Source: a virus
Lineage: Duplodnaviria; Heunggongvirae; Uroviricota; Caudoviricetes
Direction: 5' to 3' (one strand)
Virus record (IMG/VR): IMGVR_UViG_2558860274_000003
Length of the DNA stretch: 15,475 bases
This document shows positions 12,983 through 14,667 of this stretch, one piece after another (positions within the stretch are counted from its first letter, which is position 1; every line of letters starts with the position of its first letter). Made by a program: the position numbers and the translations under genes. The notes under the pieces are model-generated. The model saw only the letters and a list, made by a program, of their open reading frames with translations. It did not search any database and was not told the origin of the DNA.

Positions 12983-13195
12983 ATGTCAAACATCAAAAAA
13001 TACATCATTGATTACGACTGGAAAGCATCAATAGAAATTGAAATCGACCATGACGTAATGACAGAGGAAAAACTTCACCAGACTAATAATTTCTGGTCAG
13101 ACTCTGAATACCGACTAAATAAACACGGTTCTTTATTAAATGCTGTATTAATCATGCTGGCGCAACATGCTCTGCTTATAGCAATTTCGAAAGAC
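12983..13195 (+). pseudogene. ea10: ea10, 5' part (codons 1-71), interrupted by IS629
   Basis: MSNIKKYIIDYDWKASIEIEIDHD... runs into the IS terminus; the apparent stop of the 71-aa ORF (TGA 13196-13198) is the first 3 nt of the IS. Confidence 0.8.
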
Positions 13196-13249
13196 TGAAC
13201 CGCCCCGGGAATCCTGGAGACTAAACTTCCTGAGAAAGAGGTAAACAGG

Positions 13250-13576
13250 ATGACTAAAAATACTCGTTTTTCCCCTGAAGTCCGTCAACGGGCAGTCCGT
13301 ATGGTTCTGGAAAGTCAGGGCGAATATGACTCACAATGGGCGACAATTTGTTCCATTGCTCCAAAGATTGGCTGTACGCCGGAGACTCTGCGTGTCTGGG
13401 TTCGCCAGCATGAGCGGGATACCGGGGGCGGTGATGGAGGGCTCACCACCGCTGAACGTCAGCGTCTGAAAGAGCTGGAGCGTGAAAATCGTGAACTGCG
13501 CCGCAGTAACGATATCCTTCGCCAGGCTTCCGCTTATTTTGCGAAGGCGGAGTTCGACCGCCTCTGGAAAAAATGA
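13250..13576 (+). CDS. IS629 OrfA (108 aa, HTH)
   Basis: [57 protein letters not shown]... with leucine-zipper tail; ends at the A-rich frameshift window AAAAAATGA. Confidence 0.9.
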
Positions 13577-14466
13577 TGCCACTGCTGGATAAGCTGCGTG
13601 AGCAGTACGGGGTCGGACCGCTATGCAGCGAACTGCATATTGCCCCGTCAAACGTATTACCACTGTCAGCAACAGCGACATCATCCGGATAAACGCAGTG
13701 CCCGTGCGCAGCGCGATTGACTGGCTAGAAGAAAGAGATACTGCGCGTATACGATGGGAATCATCAGGTATACGGTGTGCGTAAAGTCTGGCGTCAGTTG
13801 TTACGGGAAGGAATCAGGGTAGCCAGATGTACAGTGGCGCGCCTCATGGCGGTTATGGGACTTGCCGGTGTTCTCCGGGGTAAAAAGGTCCGTACGACCA
13901 TCAGCCGGAAAACCGTTGCCGCAGGCGACCGCGTAAACCGTCAGTTCGTGGCAGAACGACCTGACCAGCTGTGGGTGGCTGATTTTACTTACGTCAGCAC
14001 ATGGCAGGGCTTCGTCTATGTGGCGTTCATCATTGATGTGTTTGCCGGATACATTGTGGGGTGGCGGGTCTCATCGTCCATGGAGACGACATTCGTGCTG
14101 GATGCACTGGAGCAGGCGTTATGGGCCCGTCGACCGTCCGGCACGGTCCATCACAGTGATAAAGGTTCTCAGTATGTATCGCTGGCCTACACACAGCGGC
14201 TTAAGGAAGCCGGATTACTGGCATCAACAGGAAGTACAGGCGACTCGTATGACAACGCGATGGCGGAGAGCATCAATGGTCTTTACAAAGCGGAGGTAAT
14301 ACACCGTAAGAGCTGGAAAAACCGTGCAGAAGTGGAACTGGCCACACTCACGTGGGTGGACTGGTATAACAATCGACGATTGCTGGAAAGGCTGGGCCAT
14401 ACTCCTCCGGCAGAAGCAGAAAAAGCTTATTATGCTTCCATCGGAAACGATGATCTGGCAGCCTGA
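13573..14466 (+). pseudogene. IS629 OrfB transposase (DDE), N-terminal region disrupted by frameshifts; intact catalytic portion 13777-14466
   Basis: The -1 frame entered at the orfA end ([26 protein letters not shown]...) hits TAA at 13690-13692. The expected continuation (TYYHCQQQRHHPDKRSARAQRD) is in another frame and itself stops at TGA 13725-13727. The long ORF resumes only at GTG 13777. The element is 3 bp longer than the 1310 bp I recall for IS629, consistent with three 1-nt insertions. Confidence 0.7.
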
Positions 14467-14508
14467 GTTCACAGATAAAACACTCTCCAGGAAACCCGGG
14501 GCGGTTCA

Positions 14509-14667
14509 GACTTAAATGCATATGGTGTTGTGTGTGAGTTCGACTGGAATGATGGAAATGGTCAGGAAGGATGGCCTCCAATGGATGGTAGCGAAGGAAT
14601 AAGAATTACCGATATCGATACATCAGGAATATTTGATTCAGATGATATGACTATCAAAGCCGCCTGA
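14509..14667 (+). pseudogene. ea10: ea10, 3' part (codons 72-122) after the IS629 insertion
   Basis: After removing one copy of the GAC duplication the frame continues LNAYGVVCEFDWNDGNGQEGWPPMDGSEGIRITDIDTSGIFDSDDMTIKAA*. This gives 122 aa in total, the length of lambda Ea10, with the same 72-nt gap to cIII as in lambda. Confidence 0.75.

Follow-up and report, generated by a model that had tools for sequence, protein, structure and literature searches.

The ea10 gene of a dead lambdoid prophage is interrupted by an IS629-type insertion sequence, which is flanked on both sides by a copy of its 3-bp target. We regard this as an ordinary and recent insertion, and the three additional bases which break the transposase gene as written are most likely errors that arose during gap closure of the Escherichia albertii KF1 genome (a reading to which we assign a probability of about 0.78). 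The window, i.e., the whole stretch of 15,475 nucleotides that was analysed, is identical to the KF1 chromosome (CP007025.1) over 12,493 overlapping nt; this record was found by an exact look-up of the truncated Ea10 of 71 aa. A second complete E. albertii chromosome (CP070292.2), which was found by a look-up of the 149-aa protein encoded next to ea10, carries the element at the same site, preceded by ATTTCGAAAGAC and followed by GACTTAAATGCA. There, the element has a length of 1310 bp and is annotated with an intact OrfAB fusion of 404 aa. Over 7,138 bp the two sequences exhibit no substitution at all and three one-base gaps, which are exactly the three additional bases of the window.

The interrupted ea10 gene and its empty sites

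The 5′ part of ea10 (12983-13195, plus strand) comprises codons 1-71. The corresponding reading frame as written (12983-13198) ends on the TGA at 13196-98, and these are the first three bases of the insertion sequence, as the original prediction had stated. The 3′ part (14512-14667, plus strand) contains codons 72-122 and the stop codon. One GAC is located at 13193-13195 and the second at 14509-14511, where it directly abuts the element. Joining 12983-13195 to 14512-14667 in silico yields a gene of 122 codons plus stop. The restored protein matches the Pfam family DUF2528 with an E-value of 7.8e-46 over profile positions 1-104 of 104, and it can be aligned gap-free with Ea10 of phage ev207 (approximately 97% identity, 3 differences in 122 aa) and with a protein of phage 2851 labelled ‘ssb’. 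The genes around it are ral, an ORF of 149 aa, cIII, kil and gam. It is thus positioned between ral and cIII, as is conserved in lambdoid early-left operons, and the Ea10/DUF2528 proteins of phage lambda occupy the same slot between ral and cIII-kil-gam. Unlike these, the gene in the window is broken after codon 71. The window also carries the E. albertii allele of Ea10, which reads ISKD instead of ISSD and is present in the empty sites as well. Just 5′ of the duplication (13187-13192) there are three substitutions, with TCGAAAGAC in the window and TCAAGCGAC in E. coli phages. These were considered as a footprint of the insertion, an idea that was rejected because all E. albertii empty sites carry the same allele.

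Natural empty sites were searched by looking up the truncated form of Gam, a marker specific to the deletion remnant of this prophage. The same gam′-int′ remnant was found in other E. albertii assemblies and in metagenomes, and in seven of the ten places shown with it ea10 is an intact gene of 122 aa, the occupied state being in the minority. The empty sites read TTTCGAAAGAC up to the point of insertion and TTAAATGC behind it. In two of the contigs, L025 (6,756 bp compared) and L030 (6,492 bp), the sequence is 100.000% identical to that of the window after removal of the element and one GAC. Five more contigs with the empty allele show 0-2 substitutions or, in the case of L032, two 1-bp gaps. 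As the natural empty sites match the sequence restored in silico, the insertion into ea10 with its 3-bp duplication is a simple one, and these sites represent the strongest possible confirmation of it. This bears out the earlier proposals that excision of the element together with one GAC would regenerate a 122-codon ea10 and that the GAC duplication is a clean one.

The occupied site is likewise not restricted to the KF1 record and CP070292.2. The left junction is present in independent contigs found with the truncated Ea10 of 71 aa, namely L007 (8 samples in Logan) as well as L008 and L009 (another run and a chicken-gut metagenome), and the right junction was found in a metagenome contig (L031). 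An exact k-mer scan of the GTDB representative genomes for the left junction yielded no match. As independent contigs carry both junctions, the insertion is real and not confined to one assembly. Judging by the adjacent plasmid accession CP070293, CP070292.2 presumably belongs to strain ‘Sample 166’, which was obtained from poultry in Sichuan. The occupied site is confined to a sub-lineage. Its members are KF1 (isolated from a child in Poland), the strain from Chinese poultry to which CP070292.2 belongs, and a small number of sequencing runs and metagenomes. Occupied versus empty ea10 is a clean presence/absence marker for this sub-lineage of E. albertii.

Structure and family of the element

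As written, the element covers 13196-14508 on the plus strand and has a length of 1313 bp, and its termini read TGAACCGCCCCGGG and CCCGGGGCGGTTCA. The left terminal inverted repeat (13196-13220) begins with TG (TGAACC), is perfect over its first 14 nt and matches the right one (14484-14508, opposite strand) at 23 of 25 positions; the junction at the right end is independently confirmed by contig L031. An intact orfA of 108 aa with an HTH_Tnp_1 domain is located at 13250-13576 on the plus strand and overlaps with its stop the ATG of orfB at 13573. The frameshift region is complete: A run of six A (13568-13573) falls inside the span of an intact ALIL pseudoknot (13531-13647, plus strand; Rfam RF01497, 120.2 bits, E = 3e-32), a stimulator of -1 frameshifting. 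The orfB frame (13573-14466, plus strand) is interrupted by TAA at 13690-92 and TAG at 13726-28, with the codons between 13650 and 13727 out of frame. Its open remainder (13777-14466, plus strand) comprises 229 codons with a complete catalytic DDE domain (Pfam rve, E = 2.5e-28, in addition to rve_3) and shows no private substitutions. The NCBIfam model NF033516 (transpos_IS3) scores it with 258 bits against a cut-off of 160.

By its sequence, the element agrees with the IS3 family in every feature that could be tested, i.e., the arrangement of the reading frames and the frameshift signals, the DDE domain, the TG...CA inverted repeats and the 3-bp duplication of GAC, with the exception of an uninterrupted OrfAB. 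The latter is absent from the window as written because of the two stops and is present in CP070292.2 with 404 aa. This deviation is probably a sequence error, and it bears on the autonomy of the element and not on its membership in the IS3 family.

A similar picture emerges from a comparison with the IS629/IS1203/IS3411 group, which is known from Shigella and from E. coli O157, O145 and others. Members of this group have a length of 1310 bp, which the window copy matches once the three private bases are removed. They encode an orfA of 108 aa and an orfB of 296 aa in 0 and -1 frames, with an A6 run and an ALIL pseudoknot, and they share with the element of the window the rve (DDE) domain, the TG...CA termini, a 3-bp duplication and the location in a prophage. 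What sets the window copy apart are the three extra bases and the two in-frame stops in orfB as written. For IS629, duplications of 3-4 bp and a preference for prophages have been reported (PMC3271280). The window copy shares 99.1% identity with E. coli copies that are named no further than ‘IS3 family’, 95.7% with a copy in phage 2851 that was labelled IS629 by the depositor, and 95.8% with a copy from O157 with the RefSeq label IS1203. In ISfinder, copies with roughly 95% or more nucleotide identity are conventionally treated as isoforms. At this level the name IS629 should be read as approximate, being based on identities to copies labelled by depositors or RefSeq. The subtype of the window copy (GATACTGCG and GATGGGAAT, RKTVAAG) is common to copies from Shigella and from E. 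albertii plasmids and is not the subtype of O157.

Among the viral contigs of IMG/VR, 56 full-length IS629-type copies were counted (L035-L114), 46 with a length of 1310 bp and 10 with lengths of 1303-1315 bp as deposited. Where the flanks of such copies were readable, a 3-bp duplication was seen for 24 and a 4-bp duplication for two of them, while 28 exhibited none.

Elements of the IS3 family transpose by a copy-out/paste-in mechanism, for which the OrfAB transposase is made by -1 frameshifting. OrfAB binds the TG...CA ends, and the element moves via a circular intermediate, whereby 3-4 bp of the target are duplicated. In the present case, an IS629-type element transposed into codon 71/72 of ea10 and duplicated GAC. 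If the sequence of the sister genome is the true one, the element would be autonomous, with OrfA being formed by normal translation and OrfAB by ribosomes that slip into the -1 frame on the A-run, which the ALIL pseudoknot stimulates. If the three additional bases are real, no protein would join the DNA-binding part to the DDE domain, and movement or excision would need a transposase encoded elsewhere, by a further copy. Under both assumptions the consequence for the host would be the same, namely the loss of Ea10 in an already defective prophage.

Origin of the three additional bases in orfB

An alignment to intact 1310-bp copies revealed exactly three 1-nt insertions, all of them within the region 13640-13740 for which they had been proposed: AAA at 13650-13652, where all relatives have AA, TT at 13717-13718, where all relatives have T, and an additional A at 13727, where the window reads GCTAGAAG and the relatives GCTGAAG. 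The original prediction had described an element of 1313 instead of 1310 bp without a translatable OrfAB fusion, and this holds for the sequence as written, in which the DDE domain is not joined to the upstream part. It had also placed a stop at 13690 and a second frame change before 13777. Both are present, but the insertions sum up to +3, which brings the 229-codon ORF back into the original frame of orfB, and a second stop is found at 13726-28, the TAG made by the third insertion. A frame restored under selection was considered as an explanation for the net change of +3 and rejected, as two in-frame stops persist, one of which is created by the third insertion itself. Clustered substitutions around 13740-13760 were also rejected as a sign of decay, and so were the substitutions GATACTGCG and GATGGGAAT, as IS629 copies from Shigella and from E. 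albertii plasmids carry them too.

The three bases are private to the GenBank record of KF1. An E. albertii plasmid carries a truncated copy to which the first 718 nt of the element are identical apart from these bases. For 13620-13800, 22,515 places were compared in complete E. coli genomes and 6,114 in plasmids. None of them exceeded 98.3% identity, the value reached by copies whose only difference is the absence of all three bases. Searches with exact words across the insertions gave no matches in the GTDB representative genomes, IMG/VR and the JGI metagenomes, while the wild-type word occurs at 120 or more IMG/VR loci. Among 155 fetched sequences, the three variant words were present in the KF1 record only, compared to 125-134 matches of the wild-type words. 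Look-ups of the exact 39-aa, 53-aa and 229-aa products that are made by the insertions found none of these proteins on record, and the sole match for the 206-aa orfB product with an ATG start was an unrelated and truly decayed plasmid copy.

Two explanations for these bases have to be weighed, an artefact of gap closure, which is clearly favoured, and a real, very recent change specific to KF1, to which we give roughly a quarter of that weight. The KF1 genome was assembled in 2014 with MaSuRCA from Ion Torrent, Illumina and 454 paired-end reads, and its gaps were closed in silico with GapFiller and, for the remainder, by PCR and sequencing (PMC3907721). The insertions lie in the middle of a multi-copy repeat that is too long for short reads to bridge, a setting in which this assembly method is prone to error. 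Two of them are homopolymer overcalls (AA to AAA and T to TT), and the third is an A just before GAA. Errors of these kinds are produced by flow-based reads and by the tails of Sanger reads. KF1 and L025 differ by no indel over 16.5 kb of unique flanking sequence, compared to three insertions in 78 bp of the repeat. For three independent events, the probability of falling into the same 78 bp of the 8.45 kb compared is (78/8453)^2, i.e., approximately 8.5e-5, and this figure does not yet allow for insertions being rarer than substitutions. Such a cluster of three independent events is very improbable. The element and the 7.1 kb around it show no substitutions compared with the sister genome, and we know of no mutational process that would give rise to three spaced +1 insertions. 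The absence of the three bases from every other sequence searched points in the same direction. There are, however, observations that speak for a real inactivation of the transposase, either by one clustered event or in three successive steps. The deposited sequence does read so, and the unique regions of KF1 appear accurate, as the lack of indels over 16.5 kb indicates. IS2 and ISEc8, which are also present in the window, are 99.8% identical to E. coli copies with open reading frames, and as both look clean, closure of repeats in KF1 was not generally poor. The third insertion is no simple extension of a homopolymer. Natural copies with a shifted frame or an aberrant length do exist, such as a frameshifted copy of 1311 bp in O145 strain RM12581, the 10 of 56 IMG/VR copies deposited with 1303-1315 bp and the plasmid copy L155. 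In addition, polishing with short reads may, in principle, have homogenised the CP070292.2 copy with other copies of the element. Real insertions would have left an element that has lost its autonomy but retained its ends, orfA and the frameshift signal undamaged, and that depends for movement on OrfAB supplied by another IS629 copy. Their origin in a single clustered event is doubtful, being only half as probable as real insertions of either kind taken together; it would have abolished OrfAB but spared OrfA, the frameshift signal and the two ends, and such an OrfA-only element would be mobilisable in trans and might dampen the transposition of other IS629 copies of KF1. Taking these points together, we consider an intact and autonomous 1310-bp copy, as seen in the sister genome, the most likely true element at the KF1 site.

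The original prediction had preferred a different scenario, in which the transposase decayed over time after an old insertion that predates the other insertion sequences of the window. The only observations in its favour are the three frame-breaking bases and the resulting length of 1313 bp, and it can be regarded as extremely improbable. The element contains no private substitutions, and the orthologous copy of the sister genome is intact while the surrounding 7,138 bp are otherwise identical, which speaks against a decayed transposase. Between the window and empty haplotypes of the same prophage remnant there is not a single difference in 6.5-6.8 kb, and the intact ea10 of 122 aa in seven of the ten places shown with the remnant likewise speaks against great age. 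The relative order is also reversed: The empty-site scaffold L025 begins 55 nt inside the end of ISEc8 and reads through its junction at 7458. As this junction is present where ea10 is still intact, ISEc8 predates the IS629 insertion. From these sequence comparisons, the insertion in ea10 appears recent and younger than ISEc8. Real decay resembles L155 instead. Sequencing error, which had itself been named among the possible explanations of the indels, is thus the most likely one, with the three bases being private to one record.

The copy referred to as L155 is located at 1359-2663 of plasmid CP026771.1 (221 kb) and is a genuinely decayed IS629. Compared with the window copy it exhibits 17 substitutions and 5 other indels, which are scattered over the element, and its orfA is cut to 72 aa and its orfB to 206 aa.

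The three bases are probably errors of CP007025.1 that turn an active transposase into an apparent pseudogene, and record errors of this type would mislead censuses of insertion sequences as well as counts of pseudogenes. Frame-breaking indels that occur without substitutions in a repeat assembled from short reads should not be taken as an indication of age.

The defective prophage and its other insertions

The locus is a dead lambdoid prophage which adjoins fimZ and the sfm fimbrial operon. Its genes are arranged in the order cro, cI, two unknown genes, N, sieB, ral, the 149-aa ORF, ea10, cIII and kil. At 14971-15475, only the first third of gam (about 70 codons) is left, and it is fused to a 3′ remnant of the integrase gene, directly beside fimZ. 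E. albertii genomes and metagenomes contain the same gam/int deletion remnant in 20 or more contigs, so that the prophage was already dead before IS629 arrived. IS629 entered ea10 after the loss of most of gam through int and also after the arrival of ISEc8. The biology of this insertion is ordinary, as IS629-type elements commonly enter the genes of prophages, and a dead prophage can dispense with ea10.

An insertion of IS629 in ea10 is already known from annotated public genomes. In lambdoid prophages of E. coli O157 (e.g., strain 644-PT8) the same type of element breaks ea10 between ral and cIII and is flanked by a 3-bp duplication. This copy (L003, NZ_CP015831.1, 739-2048; labelled IS1203) is, however, inserted 45 bp further downstream, with its right junction corresponding to 14556-59 of the window and with AAA as the duplicated sequence, and with 95.8% identity to the window copy it belongs to a different subtype. 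A common origin of both insertions was rejected on account of the different site and subtype. As the two insertions are independent of each other, ea10 was targeted at least twice.

Two further insertion sequences are found in the window, upstream of the prophage genes. A full IS2 of 1331 bp (3703-5033) abuts a copy of ISEc8 (5054-7458), which lacks its second terminus (GTAAGCG...). It is this ISEc8 copy, and not IS629, that is the demonstrably immobile element of the window. The ORF of 149 aa between ral and ea10 (12338-12787) is predicted to contain hydrophobic segments and has no Pfam match. In the protein collection, 5,275 blocks contain exactly this protein, in many different lambdoid prophage contexts, which characterises it as a widespread accessory gene.
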